Assembly (NCBI GenBank): GCA_964492135.1
Contig: CAZBJW010000003.1
Span: 9,364 to 73,363, forward strand
Direction of reading: 5' to 3'
DNA: 64,000 nt
Origin: an uncultured Anaerolineales bacterium
Lineage (GTDB): Bacteria > Chloroflexota > Anaerolineae > UBA7937 > B3-Chlor
The notes under the pieces were generated by a model that made no database searches, was not told the DNA's origin, and saw only the letters and a list, made by a program, of their open reading frames with translations. The translations under genes were made by a program, and so were the position numbers. Numbering within the stretch: position 1 is the first letter of the stretch; each line of letters starts with the position of its first letter. Shown in pieces: positions 9,816 through 54,343 of the stretch.

Positions 9816-9890
9816 TAGCCTGTTGCGTAATAATTGGAGCTCAATTGCCCGAACCATTAACCAAAGAGGAGGATAACACACATGAAAAGA

Positions 9891-9921
9891 GTTAGACGGA
9901 AGATTGCGTCTTCCGTCTAAC
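9891..9921 (+). other. 12-bp perfect stem-loop
   Basis: GTTAGACGGAAG-attgcgt-CTTCCGTCTAAC read directly, followed by a pyrimidine-rich tract. It overlaps a 12-codon mini-ORF. Confidence 0.4.
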
Positions 9922-9934
9922 TCCTGTTCTACAT

Positions 9935-10019
9935 GGACCTGTGGTGAAACCCGGTCGACACACCTGACTCCAAATCAGGCGTCCTGGCGGACATGCGGAT
10001 TCGAATCCCGCCAGGCCCA
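9935..10019 (+). tRNA. type-II (long variable arm) tRNA-like gene with anticodon loop CTCCAAA (CCA); probably a degenerate tRNA-Leu-like pseudogene
   Basis: Hand-folded 85-nt cloverleaf. Acceptor GGACCTG/CAGGCCC has one A-C mismatch. The D arm (GTG..GG..CAC) resembles tRNA-Leu. Anticodon stem is CCTGA/TCAGG. The variable arm is GTCC-tggc-GGAC. The T arm GCGGA-TTCGAAT-CCCGC has an A-C mismatch at 53:61. Discriminator is A and no CCA is encoded. Confidence 0.5.
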
Positions 10020-10150
10020 CTGAGTGAGCGGACAACTCCCCCTGTTCCTTGATGGGGTCAAGGCAAGCGTCCTACCAACGGGAGTGCACTCATTGGCAAT
10101 TGTTAGTATTGCACAGGAACGGCCTTTAGTCAAGGGGCCTGAGAAAGTTC

Positions 10151-30569: not shown

Positions 30570-30842
30570 CTAGAGTTTGCCTGAGGTTTCGAGCAAATCC
30601 AATAGTTCAGCGATGTTCCGTTCCCGTTGGGAAGGGTCATCACCGGGGATAGCGGTGGTGACTCATGTTTCCAGACGGTTCTCTACGATTAGAACGTTGA
30701 CCTTATCGATGTTCCGTTGCACAGCCAGGGGTTGCCTAAGGGTATCGATGCAGTATTCATCCTTGTCCATGATGCGCTGTACTCCCCGCACGTGACCCTC
30801 GATGCTGTTTAGTCTGTTAGGTATTCTGTTCTACTGTTGCAT
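30570..30842 (-). pseudogene. CsoR/CstR-family repressor-like frame with in-frame TAG (codon 4) and TGA (codon 60)
   Basis: Hand translation gives MQQ[TAG]NRIPNRLNSIEGHVRGVQRIMDKDEYCIDTLRQPLAVQRNIDKVNVLIVENRLET[TGA at 30665-30663]VTTAIPGDDPSQRERNIAELLDLLETSGKL*. The TAG is also the stop of the upstream TlpA-like ORF, in the same frame. Confidence 0.6.
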
Positions 30843-31529
30843 TTTCTCTATCACGTCAAGTTTGGAACGTCCTATCCCTATTATTGCACGAGTGACTATC
30901 TCTTCATCAAACCCGTCGCTTTTAGAGAGCATCTCTTTAAGGCTTCCCCCTGAACCCTGTAGGCCGTTGGTTTCCAGAAGACTCTCGAGCACCTCCACAA
31001 GCGTAACCTCGTCGAAGGGGCCGATATGGAGATGGGCGATATCGCCTTCTTTATCGACGATGAAGGTCTCAGGGACGCCTTGGATGCGATAGGCCTGGGC
31101 GATCTTGCTGCCCAGATCTGGCCCATTGGGATAGGTGATGTCATATTCTTCCATGTGGACTCGTGCCCCTGGCTCCGTGTCGATGTAATTGACGCCTACA
31201 AAGGTCACACCTCTGTCCCTATAGGCCCGCCAGGTCCGCTCTAGAGTTGATGCCTCCTCACGGCAGGAGAGACACCAAGAGGCCCAGAAATTGATCACCA
31301 CTACCTGACCGCTCAGATCTTCCAGGGACAACTCTCCTCCGTCGAAGAGCCCAAGAGAAAAAAGTGGGGCTGGACCCTCATCAAGAGGTCCCGCACCGAG
31401 ACCCCTCAGGGCGCTGGCAAAGAGCAGCAAAAGAGCCACCACGCCCATAAGGAGGGCCCCTTTCACCGCGGTCATGGTTCGAGGCGGGGATGTGAACTCC
31501 TCCGCCTCCCCGGCGATTTTCTCTCTCAT
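30831..31529 (-). CDS. membrane-anchored TlpA/ResA-like thioredoxin (thiol:disulfide oxidoreductase)
   Basis: 232 aa with an N-terminal TM helix and a redox motif FWASWCLSCREE (WCxxC). Confidence 0.85.
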   Translation of the reverse strand: MREKIAGEAEEFTSPPRTMTAVKGALLMGVVALLLLFASALRGLGAGPLDEGPAPLFSLGLFDGGELSLEDLSGQVVVINFWASWCLSCREEASTLERTWRAYRDRGVTFVGVNYIDTEPGARVHMEEYDITYPNGPDLGSKIAQAYRIQGVPETFIVDKEGDIAHLHIGPFDEVTLVEVLESLLETNGLQGSGGSLKEMLSKSDGFDEEIVTRAIIGIGRSKLDVIEKMQQ

Positions 31530-31552: not shown

Positions 31553-32149
31553 CTAACGTTCCAGCACTATACCATGCAACCAGATCTCCACCACTGTCTC
31601 GTCGGGGTCGTTGGATTCGACAATGACCCCCCGCTCCACCTCGCCAACCACCTCGTGGAAATCCGGGTCGAAGTAGATGGTCAGGGTGGCCTGGCCACCG
31701 GGCGGGATGGTGCCCGCTGAGAGGTCTGCGGTGGTGCAGCCGCAGGTGGTATAGAAACTGGTGACCGCCAGATCACCCCGTCCCAGGTTTCGGACGGTGA
31801 AACTCCGAATCACCTCTTCGCTGGGGTGAACGCTACCGAAGTCATAATAGGTGGTAGATACCTCTATATCCGGTGGTGGCCCTTGGGCAAGAGAGCCGGT
31901 GAGTGGGGCACGATATGGATCGATCTCGTGAATGGCGTGGATGGGGCCGGCGGTGGGAAGTTGACTGCCACTCGACCCAGAAGAGGTCGAGGGCCCTCCT
32001 TGGCCGGCGAGATATAGTAGTCCCCCCAGGCCGCTGATGATCAAGAGGATGGCTATGGCCCAAGACCAATACCTTTGTGATGCTCCTCTGCTCTGACGAG
32101 AGGCCCTTCGCCTCCTGGCGCGTTCAGAACTTCGTTCTCTCTTACCCAT
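31553..32149 (-). CDS. membrane-anchored DUF1573-family protein
   Basis: 198 aa with YDFGSV...VRNLGRGDLAVTSFYTTCGCTTADL...IVESNDPDE, matching the DUF1573 pattern (N.G...L.I....CGCT, SNDP). Confidence 0.75.
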   Translation of the reverse strand: MGKRERSSERARRRRASRQSRGASQRYWSWAIAILLIISGLGGLLYLAGQGGPSTSSGSSGSQLPTAGPIHAIHEIDPYRAPLTGSLAQGPPPDIEVSTTYYDFGSVHPSEEVIRSFTVRNLGRGDLAVTSFYTTCGCTTADLSAGTIPPGGQATLTIYFDPDFHEVVGEVERGVIVESNDPDETVVEIWLHGIVLER

Positions 32150-33252: not shown

Positions 33253-33754
33253 CTAGGCCACCTTCTCGGTCACATAGACCTTATCGTCCTCTACAGCCAC
33301 ATCATAGGGTGCGATGGGAGCCGGCGGAGGGTCGGATATGACGGTGCCGGTGAGTTCACTTCCCTGGGGATCTTGGAGGGAGAAGCGTCCGTCGTGGCAG
33401 GGGCAATGGGTATAGGGCTCATCTGGGCTCTTGTGGACTATGCAGGCCAAATGGGTGCATACCACCGAGAAGGCCCGAACCCCCCGGTTCAGTGTTCACC
33501 GTTATCACCGGTTGGTGGCCTAGAGCCACCACTTTGCCTGTGCCCAGGGGGATTTCATCTATGGTTCCCACCAGCACGCGTCCGCCCGTGGCTGTTGCCG
33601 CGCTCTTGGAGGGCCAGAGATAGCCGATGAGGGGGGTCAATACCCCAACCAGGGTGGAGAGGAAGGAGAACCCAAGCGCATATCTGAGGAATCTGCGTCG
33701 GCCTACGCCTTTGACTTCCCGCCCGTTCCTCTCAAACTTCTCTGCCATAGTCAC
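33253..33754 (-). pseudogene. Tat-exported Rieske [2Fe-2S] protein split by a frameshift in a 6-nt homopolymer
   Basis: The N-terminal part has a twin-arginine signal (GVGRRRFLRYALG). The C-terminal part has CTHLACIV...CPCHDGRF. The frames join as ...VNTEPG|VRAFSVVCTHLAC if one G is removed from the run at 33480-33485. Confidence 0.75.
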
Positions 33755-34494: not shown

Positions 34495-35349
34495 TCAGCA
34501 CCCACCTACCATCTCAGGCATGAACTCCGGAAACTCCTCTAGGATCTCCTGGATCCCCTCTTCGCCGGCTACCTCGCGCGCCTGCAAGGCTTCGATCAGC
34601 GTTTGCTTGGGGAAGAATACGGCTCGCCAACGGTTCAGTTCCCCCAAGAGTTCCTCATCGCTGAACTCCTGAGAGCGGTTGGCGATCAGATAGGCGGCCA
34701 AGCCGCGCATGGCCTTGGAGTGGTCGCAGCCGCAGGCTGCCGTGCCATCCTTGTTTACCAGTGTCTGGGCAGTGCAACAGTATTTGCAAGCGGTTTCGCT
34801 GCCGGTTCGGATGTAGCGTTCCAGGTCTGCTCCGGCAAGCGAGATCTTGCGTTGGCCGTACGTGAGATCGAACTCGCGCAACAGGTTGATGCTCGCCTGT
34901 ACGTTGTCAAAGGAAACGCCCAAATCTTCACCATATACGGCAGACACCCCCGCGGGGATGACCTCTCTCTGGATCTCCCTGAGGCGGTAGTAGGGGTTGA
35001 GCGTGCGAAGTTGGGCGATTTCCCCCGCGAGCGATGAGATCATCGTATCGAACTGGGGATCGGAGCAACTCTTGGCAGCCAGGGCGTTCAGTTCTTGGAC
35101 GACCATCTGATACGCCTCCACGACTGAGAGATCACTAGACTCGGTCGGTGCCTGCTGGGCAATGGGGGTTTGACGAGACACAGCCCCTGTCGTGGTCGGG
35201 AATAGCAAGGGGTGGGTGTACAGCCCCACCAAGTAGAAAATCAGCGCCCCTACCAGCGCCAGGGTGTAGCTCTTGCGAATATAGGTGGCACCCGGTTTGC
35301 GCGGTTCATTTTCTTGCTCTGGATCCTTATATCCGTCATTCATAGGCAT
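34495..35349 (-). CDS. membrane-anchored Cys-rich hypothetical protein
   Basis: 284 aa with one TM helix and a Cys cluster ETACKYCCTAQTLVNKDGTAACGCDHSKAM. The family could not be identified with confidence. Confidence 0.5.
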   Translation of the reverse strand: MPMNDGYKDPEQENEPRKPGATYIRKSYTLALVGALIFYLVGLYTHPLLFPTTTGAVSRQTPIAQQAPTESSDLSVVEAYQMVVQELNALAAKSCSDPQFDTMISSLAGEIAQLRTLNPYYRLREIQREVIPAGVSAVYGEDLGVSFDNVQASINLLREFDLTYGQRKISLAGADLERYIRTGSETACKYCCTAQTLVNKDGTAACGCDHSKAMRGLAAYLIANRSQEFSDEELLGELNRWRAVFFPKQTLIEALQAREVAGEEGIQEILEEFPEFMPEMVGGC

Positions 35350-35364
35350 CGGTCAATTCCTCTT

Positions 35365-35502
35365 TCACCTGCGGTCCCCAGACTTTAGGTACGTCTTCAG
35401 GCTCTGGGGAACCAGAAGGCCCCAGAGCACGCAAAGGATATAGCTCACGGATAAGAGCAACCCCGGCAACGAGCCTACTATGGTGAAGTTCAACCCCCTC
35501 AT
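35365..35502 (-). pseudogene. truncated paralog of the copA-linked small membrane protein (27164-27457)
   Basis: Hand translation gives MRGLNFTIVGSLPGLLLSVSYILCVLWGLLVPQSLKTYLKSGDRR*. It shares the SYxLCV.(F/W)GL..P.SL pattern with the paralog. Its ATG overlaps the NfeD stop (ATGA). Confidence 0.4.
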
Positions 35503-35891
35503 TTTCTTACGCCTCCTTCACAATGTGAGCGACGGCTGGTCTCCGCCTCTGTTCCCTCGGTACCACCGACGATGAGTATTAGCCCTTTGAAACCGACGAT
35601 CCTCACTCGTTGGGCGGGCCTCAAGTTCTCCTCTGAGACAGCGCTCCAGAACTCGTTCCGGTAACGAACCTGTCCTGCGGAGTCCATCGGGGTGACCACC
35701 GTGGCTAGTGCTCCCATCATCTCTTCACGTCCAGACTGCACTGGTTGCCTCATGGCTCTTATGACCTTATAGTAGATGAAGAGGGATGTCACTGATACTA
35801 TCGCGTAAGTAGGGAGGGCCACCCCGAAAGGGAAAATGATGAATAGCCCTAAACCGATAAGAGGCATGAAGAGTAATAGATGGCACCACAT
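35499..35891 (-). CDS. NfeD-family membrane protein (OB-fold C-terminus)
   Basis: 130 aa with two N-terminal TM helices and a C-terminal pattern G.V.....W.A.S...L..G..V.V....GL.L.V. Confidence 0.65.
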   Translation of the reverse strand: MWCHLLLFMPLIGLGLFIIFPFGVALPTYAIVSVTSLFIYYKVIRAMRQPVQSGREEMMGALATVVTPMDSAGQVRYRNEFWSAVSEENLRPAQRVRIVGFKGLILIVGGTEGTEAETSRRSHCEGGVRK

Positions 35892-35907: not shown

Positions 35908-36501
35908 TCATTCAGCAGAGAGCAGGGCCTCGATATCTTTCTCCAAGGCCTCTTTGCTTACCAAGCCGATGTAGGTGTTGTGTATCTCACCCTGCGATGT
36001 GACCAGCGCAGTATGCGGGTGAGCCGTCAGCCGGTAGTCGCGAAATACTTTCACATCCCCCAGAAGGTTGAGGTAATTGATCCCCCTTTCCTCCAGGAAT
36101 GATCTAACTACTTCTGGCTCCTCTTCCACATCGATACCGATGACGACTAGACCCTTGGACTCGTACTCCTCCTGAAGCTCAACCATGGACGATACCATCG
36201 CCCGGCAGTATATTCACCAAGTGGCCCAGAAGAAAAGCATCACCGGCCTTCCTCGGAACTGGGAGAGGCTCACCTCATGCCCTTCCAAGTCCCGAAGTGT
36301 GAAATCGGGGGCCATCATCGCTTGGGTCGTAGGCGTCTCCATAGAGGGAGGGGGGGTGGCTTCATCTACGAAAGTGGACTGTATCTCGGGAGTTGCAGTC
36401 ACCTCTCTTTCTCCCTGAGCGCAACCTACCGCTATCAAGGGGATGGACCAAAGGAAGAGGACGAAGACAAACCAGCGCAAAGATCCTATTCTCTGGGGCA
36501 T
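35908..36501 (-). CDS. TlpA/ResA-like thioredoxin lipoprotein with in-frame UGA replacing the first Cys of WCxxC (candidate selenoprotein, or fresh pseudogene)
   Basis: Track ORFs 36214-36501 and 35908-36198 are in the same frame. The junction reads ...[11 protein letters not shown][TGA 36216-36214][29 protein letters not shown]..., compared with FWASWCLSCREE in the paralog. A lipobox is present (IAVGC). Confidence 0.6.
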
Positions 36502-36581
36502 GGTGGAGTCCTCCTTAGTACGTTCGACTCATAGCCATCATCCGGCAGTGCGGACCACTGGCCATCTTCCTTATCTTCACC

Positions 36582-37097
36582 TTAATCGCCAAAATACGCT
36601 CTTATGGAGAGGATCTCCTCAGGTTCTAAGGGATCGTTTGACCTTACGGTGATCAGGAAATGATGGGGACCTCCCATCCCCTCGTGCATATGCAAGCAGA
36701 CGCTCACCGTACTGGATTCGCCTGGCCCAAGGGTCGTAGAACCTACGACCGGCTTCGGTGGTCAACACCCCTCCAAAGTCTCGATCGTTGGCTCACCGAT
36801 GATCTCTAGCGGCGCATTGCCTACATTTCTAAAGGGGAAGTAATAGTGGAACATCTGGTTGAGCGGAAGGGTCCCTAAATCCGCAGAGTCGTGGTCAAAG
36901 GAGATCCGGGGGCCATTAACAGCGCTTGGTTCTTCTGAGGTGCTCGAAGGTACGACCGTTGGGGCCGGCGGCTCCACGATCCCCTCAGAAGGCTCTAGAG
37001 CACATCCAGCCAGCAGGCCAAATACTATCAGCGCCAGCGATAGGCTCACCTTCTTGCTATGCAGTTTCATCGATATGCATTCCAACGTATTGGCCAT
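36582..37097 (-). CDS. DUF1573-like protein with in-frame UGA inside the family Cys motif (candidate selenoprotein, or fresh pseudogene)
   Basis: Track ORF 36762-37097 ends ...FRNVGNAPLEIIGEPTIETLEGC[TGA 36764-36762]. The same frame continues PPKPVVGSTTLGPGESSTVSVCLHMHEGMGGPHHFLITVRSNDPLEPEEILSIRAYFGD* (hand translation) and retains the family SNDP motif. Confidence 0.6.
36732..36750 (-). promoter_or_regulatory. SECIS-like hairpin 11 nt downstream of the UGA at 36764-36762
   Basis: The minus-strand RNA reads UGA, 11 nt, then GGUCGUAG-GUU-CUACGACC. This is a perfect 8-bp stem with a 3-nt loop starting GU, read directly. Confidence 0.45.
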
Positions 37098-37109: not shown

Positions 37110-37499
37110 CTACAGGGCAGGCACGTACGAGTGGGGACATCTCGTCCTCAGGGAGGAGGCCCGGAAATAGCCCTCCTCTTCATACCTGCCCTCTAGTATG
37201 ACGGTGATACCCCCTCGGAAAGTGTCAGGGGGAAGATCTTGATATATTACCGGTATACTCTCTTTACCCTGAACCTGGAATTTCAGGGTCGAGGTGCTCC
37301 ACTCCCACTCGATGGAACCAGGGATTACTTCTCCGGCCAGTCGAACCTCCTCCCCGTGCAGGCTAGGCCCCTGAGCGAGGAGTTCCTCCACGGTCAGGTA
37401 GTAGTTAGTTAGGGAACTGGTGGCCCCGATGTAGACGATATGGGCCAAGGCCGGTATGATTACGATCGCCCCAATGGCTAACTTTAGAGGCTTGGACAT
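37110..37499 (-). CDS. ccmE: cytochrome c maturation heme chaperone CcmE, Cys-type (CxxxY) variant
   Basis: 129 aa with an N-terminal TM helix. VRLAGEVIPGSI...VIYQDLPPDTFRGGITVILEG aligns with the CcmE OB fold. The heme-binding HxxxY is replaced by CPHSY. Confidence 0.75.
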   Translation of the reverse strand: MSKPLKLAIGAIVIIPALAHIVYIGATSSLTNYYLTVEELLAQGPSLHGEEVRLAGEVIPGSIEWEWSTSTLKFQVQGKESIPVIYQDLPPDTFRGGITVILEGRYEEEGYFRASSLRTRCPHSYVPAL

Positions 37500-38455: not shown

Positions 38456-39778
38456 CTAGATAATCCAAAAGAGTACGATGATCCCCAGGGCGATCATTAT
38501 CAGTCCGTACCAGAGGCGAAGATCGTGGCTATGCGTGCGCTCCCAGCTAGCCCAGGCCTTGGCCGTCACCCGGTTGCCAGCCAGACCAACGATGGCCACT
38601 AGGGGGATCACGAACATCAGGTTGTACAGCAACAAGTAGCCCATGCCCAGTCTGAGGGTGGTCTTCGCGGCCAGCAAGGTCACTATCGAAACATAGATGC
38701 CTCCTGAACAGGGGAAGGTGCAGAGTCCTACCAGTCCACCCATCACCAGGGTGGCTGGCACCGAGGCCTTCTTCACTAGGTCGGGCATCTGTTCATGGGC
38801 GAAAGAGGGCATACTCAAGTGCACTGGCAGATGAGGCCAGAAGTAATCCTTCAGATTGATTAGTCCCAGGATTATGAGCAGGATGCTGGCTAACTTCGCC
38901 CAGATGTGGGGCTGGGAGCTGAGAGAGACCGCCCTCAGGATACCCAAACCGATCAAGAGATAGACGAAGTAGATGGCAACGATGTAAACGCCGCCAAGTT
39001 TCAAGATCTCCCTCTTGGCGCGCCGCAACGTATAGAGGAAGGCGATGAGGAAAAGGATCACGGCGAAGGCACAGGGGTTGACTCCATCCACGAGGCCAGC
39101 GATGATCACCGGGGGGAGGAGAGCAATCAGGCTTTCGGTCGTAGCTGCTAGCCCCGGCCCTCTCCTATCCATGAACAAAGATCTGGACTCGTCCAGGGCC
39201 TCTTTGAGGGGCGCATCAATGGCAAATTCTTGCATCTCGCCTTGGAAGTTGCCCAAGAGGTAAGATGAAGGGTCTTCGGTCATCACCGGCTGGGCCACAA
39301 CGAGATCGGGGGGGAGATCGCTGCTGGTCAGTGTCCCTTCTACGAGGAAAGCGGGCACATGGCCCAAAAAAACGATGGTACCCTCTTCGGTGGGCACAAA
39401 CGCATAGAGGGAACTGCGCACCTCCGGGGAGAGGCCGATCTCCCCCACCAGGGCAACGAGGGTCTGCCGCCCCTGGGGAGTCAAGTAGTCGTGATGCTCA
39501 ATGCGCGCTCGAAAACCTTGACCCTCCAAGGCGGGGATGAGCGAACGCTCCACGTAACGAACACACTCACCACATCCCGAACTGAAAAAGATATACGCCT
39601 TCTCCCCTCCACCGTCATCAGCTGAAACCACGCCCTTGGATGGCGAGAGTAGCAGGAGAGCCAGTGAGAGGCCTAGAAGCACCCTAGTGGTGAGGCGTGT
39701 CCTGCTCGGGTTGTTCTCGACCTCCTCTCGCTTTGAACCCTTGCACAACGATAGCCTTAACACGATATCTCCCCTCAC
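38456..39778 (-). CDS. fusion of an extracytoplasmic thioredoxin-like domain (CGEC) with a CcdA/DsbD-type transmembrane electron-transfer domain
   Basis: 440 aa with a GTG start. The N-terminal signal/TM helix is followed by FFSSGCGECVRYVE. The C-terminal six-TM domain has VNPCAF and TFPCSGG motifs. Confidence 0.8.
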   Translation of the reverse strand: MRGDIVLRLSLCKGSKREEVENNPSRTRLTTRVLLGLSLALLLLSPSKGVVSADDGGGEKAYIFFSSGCGECVRYVERSLIPALEGQGFRARIEHHDYLTPQGRQTLVALVGEIGLSPEVRSSLYAFVPTEEGTIVFLGHVPAFLVEGTLTSSDLPPDLVVAQPVMTEDPSSYLLGNFQGEMQEFAIDAPLKEALDESRSLFMDRRGPGLAATTESLIALLPPVIIAGLVDGVNPCAFAVILFLIAFLYTLRRAKREILKLGGVYIVAIYFVYLLIGLGILRAVSLSSQPHIWAKLASILLIILGLINLKDYFWPHLPVHLSMPSFAHEQMPDLVKKASVPATLVMGGLVGLCTFPCSGGIYVSIVTLLAAKTTLRLGMGYLLLYNLMFVIPLVAIVGLAGNRVTAKAWASWERTHSHDLRLWYGLIMIALGIIVLFWII

Positions 39779-40393
39779 TCCGAGAGAGCGTAGGCCGTGA
39801 CGGTCACTATTACCTCTGGCTCATCTGGATCGTTGGAGCCGATAATGACCGCCCTTTCCACCCTTCCCCTCCAGGGGGTGAAAATCAGCGTCGAAATAAA
39901 CCGTCAACTCCGCCTCTTACCCCGGGGGGATTATCCCCGCTGCGAGACGGGCCATGGTACAACCACAAGTTGTATAAAACTGGCTTATCAGCAGATCCGC
40001 CTCGCCCCGATTGGCAACCTGAAAAGCATGCTCCAGGTTCTCCTCCGCTTTGACGGTGCCGAAATCGTAGTAGTATGATGGGATTTCTATGTCGGGGTAG
40101 AGTCCGTCGGGAGAGGGGCGGGCGGTGGGAAGGGGCCCGGTGGGTATCTCATGAATAGCCATTATGAACCCCGCGGAAGGCAACTTCGATCCTGGGTTTA
40201 TGAGAGTCCCCGAAACAGCTCCTGTTGTCGCTGAGGTCATCCAGAAGACGAATATGGCTGCAACTACCGCGTCACCTGCCAGGCCGAAGGTTCGCCCCCT
40301 TTTCCCAAGGGTGGCTTTTCTCCGCACACCTCCTCGTTTCGGCTTTCGTCTTTGTCCCTTCTTCACTTGATCTTCCTCTAGATGGCCTATCAA
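39775..40393 (-). pseudogene. DUF1573-family gene with in-frame TAA and a 1-nt frameshift
   Basis: ...YDFGTVKAEENLEHAFQVANRGEADLLISQFYTTCGCTMARLAAGIIPPG[TAA 39919-39917]EAELTVYFDADFHPLEGK, then a shift near 39860, then VERAVIIGSNDPDEPEVIVTVTAYALSE*. Its stop overlaps the GTG of the next gene. Confidence 0.75.
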
Positions 40394-53471: not shown

Positions 53472-53656
53472 CTTGGGGACGAAACTAGATCCTCAGGTTG
53501 CAGGTAGCCGCTGGTCGTTGGATAAGCAGTCCGTGGGTATTGGCTCGAGCAGAATTCGGAGGGCGATCTGGTCTATCACGTAGGTAGAGGAAACCTGCAT
53601 TGTGGTCCCCTGAGGGACGACTGCCGACCGAACAAGAAACTGTGGGGGCTGAAAGC

Positions 53657-54343
53657 GTGAAACTCACGTGGCACGGTCACGCGACGTTTGTCCTTGTAAG
53701 TCCAACCGGACTCCGCATCCTCACGGATCCGCGGGCGCCCAAGACCGGATATGATAGGCTATCTCAAGGACCCGTCGATCTTGTGGCCATCAGTCACGAC
53801 CACTACGATCACAACTGGCTGGAGGGGCTATCAGGCCCGTATAGAGCCCTCCACGGTGTTCAGGAGGAACAGGTTGTCGCGATCGCGGAGGAAGTTGCAG
53901 ATGTATTGATACGGGCCGTGGACTCGTGGCATGGTGATAGTGGAGGCTCAGAACGGGGCCCCAATGCAATCTTCGTGTTCGAGATCGATGGGATATGAAT
54001 CGCCCATCTCGGTGATTTGGGACACGTTCTTACTGCTCGACAGGTGAAACGAGTTGGGTCCCTCGACGTGCTGCTAACTCCGGTTGGGGGCCGCGCCACA
54101 ATTGACGCGTCAGGGGCTACTGGGGTGGCAGACCAGCTCCAAGCCAAGGTAGTTGTTCCTATGCACTACTGGACGCCAGACTTGCGCCCCGATCTGCTGT
54201 TCGATCGGGTTGAGCCCTTTCTCGAGGGGAAGACGGTGGTGAACGCTGAGTCTCACACTGTCACGATTGAGCAGCGTTTGCTGAAACAAGGACCTATAGT
54301 TCTGGTGCTCAACTACCGATTGACCCATGCTCGACAGGGGTGA
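53657..54343 (+). pseudogene. MBL-fold metal hydrolase with one in-frame TGA
   Basis: VKLTWHGHATFVL...ISHDHYDHN...AIFVFEIDGI[TGA 53996-53998]IAHLGDLGHVLTARQ...DVLLTPVGG...VVPMHY. Both track ORFs are in one frame, and related proteins usually have Arg or Lys at this position. Confidence 0.7.

Follow-up and report, generated by a model that had tools for sequence, protein, structure and literature searches.

Adjacent DUF1573-like and TlpA-like genes with in-frame UGA codons in an Anaerolineales genome: a probable selenoprotein pair and a Cys-Sec family of Ig-like proteins

Introduction

When two neighbouring genes are each cut once, in frame, by a UGA at a cysteine (Cys) motif, are they decayed genes, genes read with an altered code, genes that truly end there, or genes for selenoproteins? 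This question is raised by a DUF1573-like gene and a TlpA-like gene on the minus strand of DNA from an uncultured Anaerolineales bacterium (Chloroflexota; GenBank assembly GCA_964492135.1, contig CAZBJW010000003.1, positions 9,364 to 73,363). We refer to this whole stretch of 64,000 nucleotides (nt) as the window and give all coordinates within it. A first-pass annotation, made from the letters of the window alone, had read the two genes as a selenoprotein pair, with selenocysteine (Sec) at both UGA codons. Sec use is documented in Anaerolineales, where SelB and Sec-type formate dehydrogenases have been described (PMC4959059), and Chloroflexota is among the most selenoprotein-rich phyla (PMC13326102). 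Our analysis supports this interpretation, and we consider it highly probable that both genes encode Sec at their UGA and are functional selenoprotein genes, because the UGA codons are kept in relatives, the sequence downstream of them is under purifying selection, homologs carry Cys, and a hairpin of the bacterial Sec insertion sequence (bSECIS) type begins 10-11 nt downstream of each UGA.

Two genes, each with a single in-frame UGA

The DUF1573-like gene, a HYDIN-type immunoglobulin-like (Ig-like) lipoprotein gene of what we describe below as the E-G-C-U-P-P family, occupies 36582..37097 on the minus strand with one UGA read through; 37097 is its upstream start, and the start common to its orthologs is the ATG at 37070. 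Its sole in-frame interruption is the TGA at 36764-36762, in the context ETLEGC-UGA-PPKPVVGSTT. The putative Sec codon (36762..36764, minus strand) lies directly 3' of a Cys codon and would create a vicinal C-U dyad, with the protein around the site reading ETLEGC-U-PPKPVVGSTTLGPGE. The first-pass annotation had seen family motifs continue after the UGA, and indeed the frame runs on to FLITVRSNDP and ends in YFGD. With U replaced by C, the protein scores 27.1 bits against the Pfam model DUF1573 (PF07610), a marginal pass of its gathering score of 26.1, and 34.9 bits against HYDIN_VesB_CFA65-like_Ig (gathering score 25.5).

The TlpA-like gene (35908..36501, minus strand, likewise with one UGA read through) encodes a TlpA/ResA-like thioredoxin-fold lipoprotein whose active site would be U-x-x-C (W-U-I-Y-C). 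Its only in-frame interruption is the TGA at 36216-36214, in the context FFWATW-UGA-IYCRA, which places the putative Sec codon (36214..36216, minus strand) where the CxxC motif has its N-terminal Cys. The protein with U replaced by C matches the Pfam models AhpC-TSA (83.8 bits, cutoff 26) and Redoxin (68.8 bits, cutoff 26.6). Both proteins are probably extracytoplasmic lipoproteins held by a lipid anchor, because the signal peptides that can be read off their sequences carry a lipobox Cys (LLAGC in the DUF1573-like protein, IAVGC in the TlpA-like protein).

Two Logan assemblies from separate runs, SRR14802574 and SRR30905122, match this part of the window at 100% over 8245 nt and 5928 nt, and both TGA base calls are thus reproduced in independent assemblies. 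The initial observation that each gene is broken only by a single in-frame TGA is confirmed, down to the coordinates.

Conservation of the UGA codons and selection downstream of them

Homolog searches with the DUF1573-like gene found only shortened gene calls, every one ending in ETLEGC. At the DNA level we compared close relatives (L001, L002-L004, L007 and L009, the last being a GTDB representative labelled 'MAG: Anaerolineae bacterium') that share ~86-88% nt identity with the window. TGA stands at the identical codon of the DUF1573-like gene in 12 lineages and at the identical codon of the TlpA-like gene in four, with the downstream frames intact; for the TlpA-like gene these include every close relative whose contig reaches it (L001, L002/L003, L009). 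The distant members of the DUF1573-like family checked at the DNA level (L011-L015, L017, L018) have TGA after GC in seven of seven cases, and where the contig is long enough the frame continues as PP..VVG(S/A)TT..PGE..(M)HxGMxGPHxF..SNDP. There are no extra stops or frameshifts in UGA-keeping relatives of either gene, and no ortholog is disrupted at an unrelated position, the pattern that the first-pass annotation had named as a sign of ordinary decay. A scan of metagenome contigs for further orthologs gave a single match (L010), an irrelevant distant Ig-domain sequence.

Downstream of the UGA, five of the six DUF1573-like pairs have a ratio of nonsynonymous to synonymous substitution rates (dN/dS) of 0.07-0.29, and the TlpA-like pairs have 0.25-0.37. 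Over both genes this amounts to 0.07-0.37 in eight of nine pairwise comparisons, with values that resemble those of the upstream halves. The coding sequence after both UGAs is under purifying selection. In pairs with the window, the synonymous rate (dS) of the DUF1573-like gene drops from 0.43-0.52 upstream of the UGA to 0.05-0.16 downstream of it, which fits an overlapping constraint at the level of RNA.

A hairpin after each UGA

The ~45 nt that follow each UGA are 97-98% identical among close relatives, against ~86% for the whole genes. In the DUF1573-like gene this stretch holds the hairpin that had been noticed at first pass, GGUCGUAG-GUU-CUACGACC (36732..36750, minus strand), a perfect 8-bp stem that begins 11 nt after the UGA and carries its loop 19 nt after it, with an energy of -10.5 kcal/mol (z = -4.35, 0/200 shuffles). 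The hairpin of the TlpA-like gene had been called weak and placed at 36200-36183; its actual core is GGGCGAU-GGU-AUCGUCC (36203-36187), which together with a 3-bp extension spans 36182..36206 on the minus strand. The core begins 10 nt and the loop 17 nt after the UGA, and the energy is -7.3 kcal/mol for the core (z = -3.2) and -10.3 kcal/mol with the extension. The bSECISearch model, as summarised in PMC13188914, describes bacterial elements by a loop of 3-9 nt with a G within its first two positions, a stem of 4-16 bp, a loop that lies 16-37 nt from the UGA, and a minimum free energy of <= -7.5 kcal/mol. The DUF1573-like hairpin (8 bp, GUU, 19 nt, -10.5) falls within this consensus on all four counts, and so does the TlpA-like hairpin (7+3 bp, GGU, 17 nt, -10.3), in the case of energy only with its extension.

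Covariation in the DUF1573-like hairpin is strong. Across 11 distinct sequences, distant members included, 97.7% of the cells are paired, against 34-58% when the stem is slid out of register; compensatory double changes occur in four of the eight pairs, and none of 500 shuffles does as well on any of five measures. Counting codons by hand shows that both partners are third codon positions in three of the four covarying pairs, and the signal therefore lies in the RNA and is not a by-product of protein conservation. Compared with the bacterial SECIS consensus, whose prototype is E. coli fdhF, the two hairpins are alike in lying within the coding sequence straight after the UGA and in having an apical triloop that starts with G-U or G-G on an upper stem of 7-8 bp, but they differ in the very small size of the loop and in having no bulged U. 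We would expect SelB to bind both.

Cysteine homologs and a family of truncated gene calls

In nine Cys homologs of the TlpA-like protein, the in-window paralog included, the column of the UGA is the invariant first Cys of FWATW-C-xx-C, as the first-pass annotation had supposed, and the resolving Cys (C99) and the cis-Pro (P162) are invariant columns as well. Since the UGA is at the first Cys and the resolving Cys and cis-Pro are kept, the gene would specify a UxxC thioredoxin-fold reductase.

The family of the DUF1573-like gene was searched with a profile of N-terminal fragments against 1.84 billion cluster representatives, which gave 220 matches. Among the 149 matches listed, with the gene's own cluster excluded (220 in all), 123 are short proteins that end exactly in GC, 85 of them in EGC, 15 in QGC, eight in KGC and the others in further variants. 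Five of the matches listed are Cys forms with EGC-C-PP (P0150, P0205, P0212, P0213, P0214); four of these are complete and share the downstream motifs, and P0205 stops at "CPP". The family signature is E-G-C-[U/C]-P-P ... (M)HxGMxGPHxF ... SNDP. In three representatives the family domain is fused to a PCYCGC domain, which belongs to the catalogued OS_HP4/CYCXC (seleno)protein family, and one member (L013 3471-4604, GCA_016210325.1) has two Ig-like domains, the first with QQGC-E and without a second Cys or Sec, the second with EQGC-U-PP. A confident AlphaFold model of the Cys form P0213 (pLDDT 86.3) consists of a helix at the N-terminus and then a β-sandwich, and a Foldseek search of this model against the PDB returns Ig-like domains of the PapD/ASH/HYDIN kind as well as 2qsv.

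Relation to catalogued selenoproteins

The pair is less novel than the first-pass annotation had assumed, because both kinds of protein already have catalogued Sec forms. For the TlpA-like protein these are the UxxC Prx-like thiol:disulfide oxidoreductase/TlpA-ResA-type selenoproteins (PF00578, cd02966; Table 1 of PMC13188914), with which it shares the thioredoxin fold, the N-terminal Sec of the CxxC motif, the cis-Pro, an N-terminal signal with lipobox and a bSECIS hairpin after the UGA. It differs from them in that its gene adjoins a second selenoprotein gene, whose product is a possible substrate, and it stays below all cutoffs of the NCBIfam equivalogs (ResA, 89.8 bits against 170; TlpA, 63.5 against 230; WAxxUGC, 47.9 against 300; and DsbE). 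Judged by these scores and motifs, the protein belongs to the known Prx-like/TlpA selenoprotein kind, at the superfamily level only.

The DUF1573-like protein invites comparison with the catalogued DUF1573 selenoprotein OS_HP2 (NF041425, PF07610), which has the motif UGC and was first reported in PMC1976440 and is listed in PMC9312934 and PMC13188914. The two share the DUF1573/HYDIN-type Ig-like superfamily and carry Sec in the Cys-motif loop after the same β-strand. However, our protein scores 17.9 bits (E = 0.003) against an NCBIfam cutoff of 100, whereas the in-window classical C-G-C paralog comes closer with 56 bits, and its motif is C-U-P rather than U-G-C. In BLASTP alignments of natural Cys forms with classical DUF1573 proteins, the first Cys of C-G-C corresponds to the kept Cys, the Gly to the Sec position and the second Cys to a Pro. 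The annotation had put Sec at a redox Cys in both genes: this stands for the TlpA-like protein with its UxxC site, but in the DUF1573-like protein Sec would take the Gly position beside the first Cys of C-G-C. Membership in OS_HP2 is ruled out by both the score and the position of Sec, and the protein further differs from the classical paralog in a preceding segment that is four residues longer and in a Met/His-rich loop. The inventory of May 2026 (PMC13188914), with 119 families and subfamilies, counts forms with differing Sec positions as separate subfamilies and lists no C-U Ig-like form, and NCBIfam has no model that matches the DUF1573-like protein. Text searches of the literature for the motif and for Ig-like/HYDIN selenoproteins returned nothing relevant.

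Vicinal Cys-Sec pairs are known from mammalian thioredoxin reductase, with its motif GCUG. Table 1 of PMC13188914 contains further 'CU' selenoproteins, namely HgcA, SaoL, SaoC, MbdU and KCU-star. Like these, the DUF1573-like protein would have Cys and Sec side by side after a Gly (G-C-U), an arrangement able to form a selenenylsulfide or to chelate soft metals, and several of those families are tied to metal or organometal chemistry. The folds are unrelated, however, and the dyad here occupies an internal loop in an Ig-like lipoprotein, whereas theirs are C-terminal or sit in a corrinoid or ferredoxin protein; the NCBIfam models of these selenoproteins give no match to the DUF1573-like protein at E <= 0.01. 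From these comparisons, the DUF1573-like gene is best described as a vicinal C-U variant of the DUF1573/Ig-like selenoproteins, one that exposes a large and systematically truncated family.

Genomic context

The two genes lie in a one-strand cluster with short gaps that runs from a CcdA/DsbD_TM-like gene through a DUF2085 gene, a CcmE-domain gene, the C-U Ig-like gene and the U-xx-C TlpA-like gene to an NfeD gene; further along in the window are DUF2933, a CsoR-type repressor, Thioredoxin_3, YHS, a two-component system and a CopA-type ATPase. These surroundings suggest extracytoplasmic handling of copper and thiol redox. The CcdA/DsbD_TM-like membrane protein (38456..39778, minus strand) has NPCAF ... 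PCSG motifs and scores 23.8 bits against DsbD_TM, below the gathering score; it is likely to be the electron supplier of the extracytoplasmic TlpA-like reductase. The NfeD-like gene (35499..35891, minus strand) is immediately downstream of the TlpA-like gene, and the CcmE-domain gene (37110..37499, minus strand) immediately upstream of the DUF1573-like gene. The CcmE-domain protein ends in RCPHSYVPAL, with a Cys-type CxxxY in place of the usual HxxxY haem-binding motif. The TlpA-like gene was also compared with CcmG/ResA of cytochrome c maturation, which would come with a full ccm or res system and act on apocytochrome c: the CcmE-domain gene and the CcdA-like gene are adjacent, and among the ORFs scanned there are no other ccm genes.

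A nearby module had been described as the same pair of genes with Cys in both. Such a module exists, with a classical DUF1573 paralog with a C-G-C motif (31553..32149, minus strand) adjoining a TlpA-like paralog with a CxxC motif (WCLSC; 30831..31529, minus strand), but its DUF1573 gene is a distant classical C-G-C paralog and not the Cys counterpart of the Sec gene. Another supposed paralog, at 39917-40393, does have the IIGSNDP motif for which it had been cited, but it is a true pseudogene. This third DUF1573 copy, also of the classical C-G-C type (39790..40393, minus strand, upstream of the CcdA-like gene), has a TAA at 39919-39917, at a Gly/Gln position, and then a frameshift before IIGSNDP, and its lesions are identical in the two independent Logan assemblies. 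The remark that the window holds genuine pseudogenes was correct.

Beyond the close relatives, the L013 member of the DUF1573-like family lies between lgt and cupredoxin/CcdA-like (NPCAF…PCSG) genes, downstream of a multicopper oxidase, and the L015 member has NfeD, DUF2933 and ICMT as neighbours. Several variants of the locus were seen in passing. One related lineage (L002 967-1443, L003 967-1443) has an extra gene for a 158-amino-acid (aa) Thioredoxin_3-domain protein (CPEC) between the two selenoprotein genes; L007 has a 95-aa ORF downstream on the opposite strand; and a 695-nt ENA contig (L008 302-604, P0005) holds a chimeric ORF with a TlpA-like N-terminus and a DUF1573-like C-terminus, joined through a stretch that matches the opposite strand, probably because of a chimeric assembly or an inversion at this site.

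Further candidates and side observations in the window

A gene for a 284-aa Cys-rich protein (34495-35349, minus strand; L009 5182-6063) with CKYCC…ACGCDHS ends in EMVGGC-TGA in both genomes and, as this Gly-Cys-UGA is similar to the Sec site, was considered as a third Sec gene; the ribosome-binding site of the next gene follows and there is no hairpin, and we judged the TGA to be an ordinary stop. The protein has no Pfam or NCBIfam match. The YHS, Thioredoxin_3 and CopA genes were checked for further Sec sites and have normal ends. A gene of the metallo-β-lactamase (MBL) fold (Lactamase_B_3; 53600-54343, plus strand) has one in-frame TGA (53996-53998) that replaces exactly one profile position (103|105). 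It was rejected as a Sec codon, being neither at a Cys nor followed by a SECIS-like hairpin (loop without a leading G, z ~0); a nonsense mutation or an error in the base calls is the probable cause. A Rieske-type gene (CTHLAC...CPCHDG; 33253-33754, minus strand) is split between two ORFs, 33419-33754 and 33253-33465, that overlap in different frames. It has apparently suffered a frameshift, and public calls likewise have it in two pieces (L005, 109 + 70 aa).

The only tRNA of the window (9935-10020, plus strand) is called tRNA-Trp (CCA) by ARAGORN, but is 86 nt long and has the long variable arm of class II (GUCC-UGGC-GGAC), A73 as its discriminator, a Leu-like D arm, and A.C mismatches in the acceptor stem (3-70) and the T stem (53-61). 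It scores only 47.6 bits against the Rfam tRNA model, and may be a class II tRNA that is decaying or has switched its anticodon. Just upstream (9866-9922, plus strand) are a strong Shine-Dalgarno sequence (AAGAGGAGG) and a 12-codon mini-ORF (MKRVRRKIASSV), overlapped by a perfect 14-bp inverted repeat (9890-9903/9909-9922); the element looks like a leader/attenuator or a terminator.

Discussion

One alternative to Sec is that both genes are ordinary pseudogenes, two neighbours each hit by chance by a nonsense mutation at a redox motif. The window does contain decayed genes, namely the third DUF1573 copy, the Rieske-like gene at 33253-33754 and the MBL-fold gene with its TGA at 53996. However, the true pseudogene among the DUF1573 copies decays through a TAA and a frameshift and not at a Cys, whereas the same codon is TGA in 12 lineages of the DUF1573-like gene and four of the TlpA-like gene with no added lesions, dN/dS downstream is well under 1, 123 of the 149 matches listed end at the same GC, and a covarying hairpin follows the UGA. 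We regard decay as effectively refuted, and the chance that it accounts for the pair as negligible.

A second kind of explanation accepts read-through but has a standard amino acid (Trp, Gly or Cys) inserted at the UGA. The means could be reassignment of the code, a suppressor tRNA, or a tRNA(Sec)-like tRNA that depends on SelB and is charged with Cys. One gene call in the family, P0244, shows W at the UGA position and could pass for a GC-W-PP variant; the odd class-II-shaped tRNA with its CCA anticodon lies in the window; and the Cys forms indicate that Cys is functionally acceptable. The W of P0244 proves to be a TGA in the DNA, translated with a UGA=Trp table by a gene caller that also ran past the real stop. 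The CCA anticodon reads UGG and not UGA, and Rfam scores the tRNA as a generic one, so that it was rejected as a UGA decoder. UGA is the commonest ordinary stop in the window, ending 25 of 48 confident genes (19 end in TAG and four in TAA); the genetic code is therefore standard, and reassignment is ruled out. Against insertion of a standard amino acid more generally, a conserved, position-specific hairpin is a hallmark of SelB-dependent recoding, and both sites are redox or ligand Cys positions, which is the classic pattern for Sec. We consider explanations of this kind very unlikely. Much the same low probability attaches to the possibility that the UGAs are true stops, yielding two polypeptides or an N-terminal fragment only, perhaps with read-through regulated by selenium. 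Gene callers do annotate separate fragments, and the downstream part of the TlpA-like gene has an ATG six codons past the UGA. But the UGA falls mid-domain in both the Ig-like β-sandwich and the thioredoxin fold; few parts of the DUF1573-like protein are as conserved as the 18 codons that separate its UGA from the next possible start; and a TlpA-like fragment would be left with the second Cys alone, its active-site residue gone.

A few observations weigh against reading the pair as selenoprotein genes, or against the functional proposal that we build on it. In the sixth DUF1573-like pair, downstream dN/dS is 0.76, a value that comes from only seven substitutions. The TlpA-like hairpin is represented by four close sequences only, and its support consists of conservation (one substitution in 36 nt across four lineages) and a single stem change, G·U to A-U in L001. 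Searches of the 64-kb window for selA, selB, selD and tRNA-Sec found none, and the assignment of Sec to both genes is drawn from sequence rather than from direct detection of selenium. The adjacency to TlpA is confined to the close clade and is absent from L012, L013, L015 and L017, and the Foldseek search of the P0213 model against the PDB returned generic Ig folds and no metal-binding analogue, which speaks against a role in metal binding. Taking all of this together with the evidence from relatives, homologs and hairpins, we would regard site-specific recoding to Sec, directed by the hairpins, as demonstrated as far as genome data allow, short of direct selenium proof.

If both genes are decoded as in the established bacterial mechanism, SelB-GTP carrying Sec-tRNA(Sec) would bind the hairpin on the translating mRNA and Sec would be put in at the UGA of each gene. 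One product would be an extracytoplasmic TlpA/ResA-like thioredoxin-fold reductase with U-x-x-C; the other, an Ig-like protein of the PapD/HYDIN type, would combine a vicinal Cys-Sec dyad with a conserved Met/His-rich loop, (M)H-x-G-M-x-G-P-H-x-F, and an SNDP motif. Reducing pathways that lead outward from CcdA to ResA or TlpA are well known, and TlpA of Bradyrhizobium reduces the copper chaperone ScoI and CoxB. The present locus is similar to these pathways in that a CcdA/DsbD_TM-like protein, a TlpA-like lipoprotein and a partner with a Cys motif are encoded together in a copper-related island. It differs in that the partner is an Ig-like C-U protein and not a Sco protein or a cytochrome, and in being known from genes alone. 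By analogy, the CcdA/DsbD-like membrane protein might pass reducing power outward to Sec-TlpA, which might maintain the neighbouring protein's Cys-Sec dyad in its reduced state. In that state the dyad, perhaps together with the conserved Met/His loop, might bind Cu(I) or another thiophilic metal or pass it on, as part of the copper-homeostasis island. We put forward this chain, from the CcdA-like protein through Sec-TlpA and dyad reduction to binding or relay of Cu(I) or a soft metal, as a tentative proposal, somewhat less probable than even. The same caution applies to the broader picture, in which the extracytoplasmic Ig-like (lipo)proteins form a large family, most of its members with Sec, that is absent from current inventories and from NCBIfam and hidden in truncated calls, and in which the dyad is a site for Cu(I) or thiophilic metals and is reduced in this clade by a dedicated Sec-TlpA fed by the CcdA-like protein; taken as a whole, this is possible but less probable than not.

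For the family itself, the consequences are in part practical. In public collections, at least 123 protein clusters formed at 50% identity seem to represent selenoprotein genes whose calls break off after "GC", and the whole family is thus stored in databases as stubs of ~100 residues. The hairpin of the DUF1573-like gene covaries cleanly at synonymous positions and is a good seed for a covariance model with which more members could be found. Sec forms exceed Cys forms by ~20 to 1 among the representatives, an unusual ratio that suggests some difficulty in replacing Sec at this position. Finally, a reductase and its likely client, encoded as selenoproteins in adjacent genes of a copper-homeostasis island, would connect selenium, in a way that can be tested, with the handling of copper or thiol redox outside the cytoplasm of Chloroflexota.

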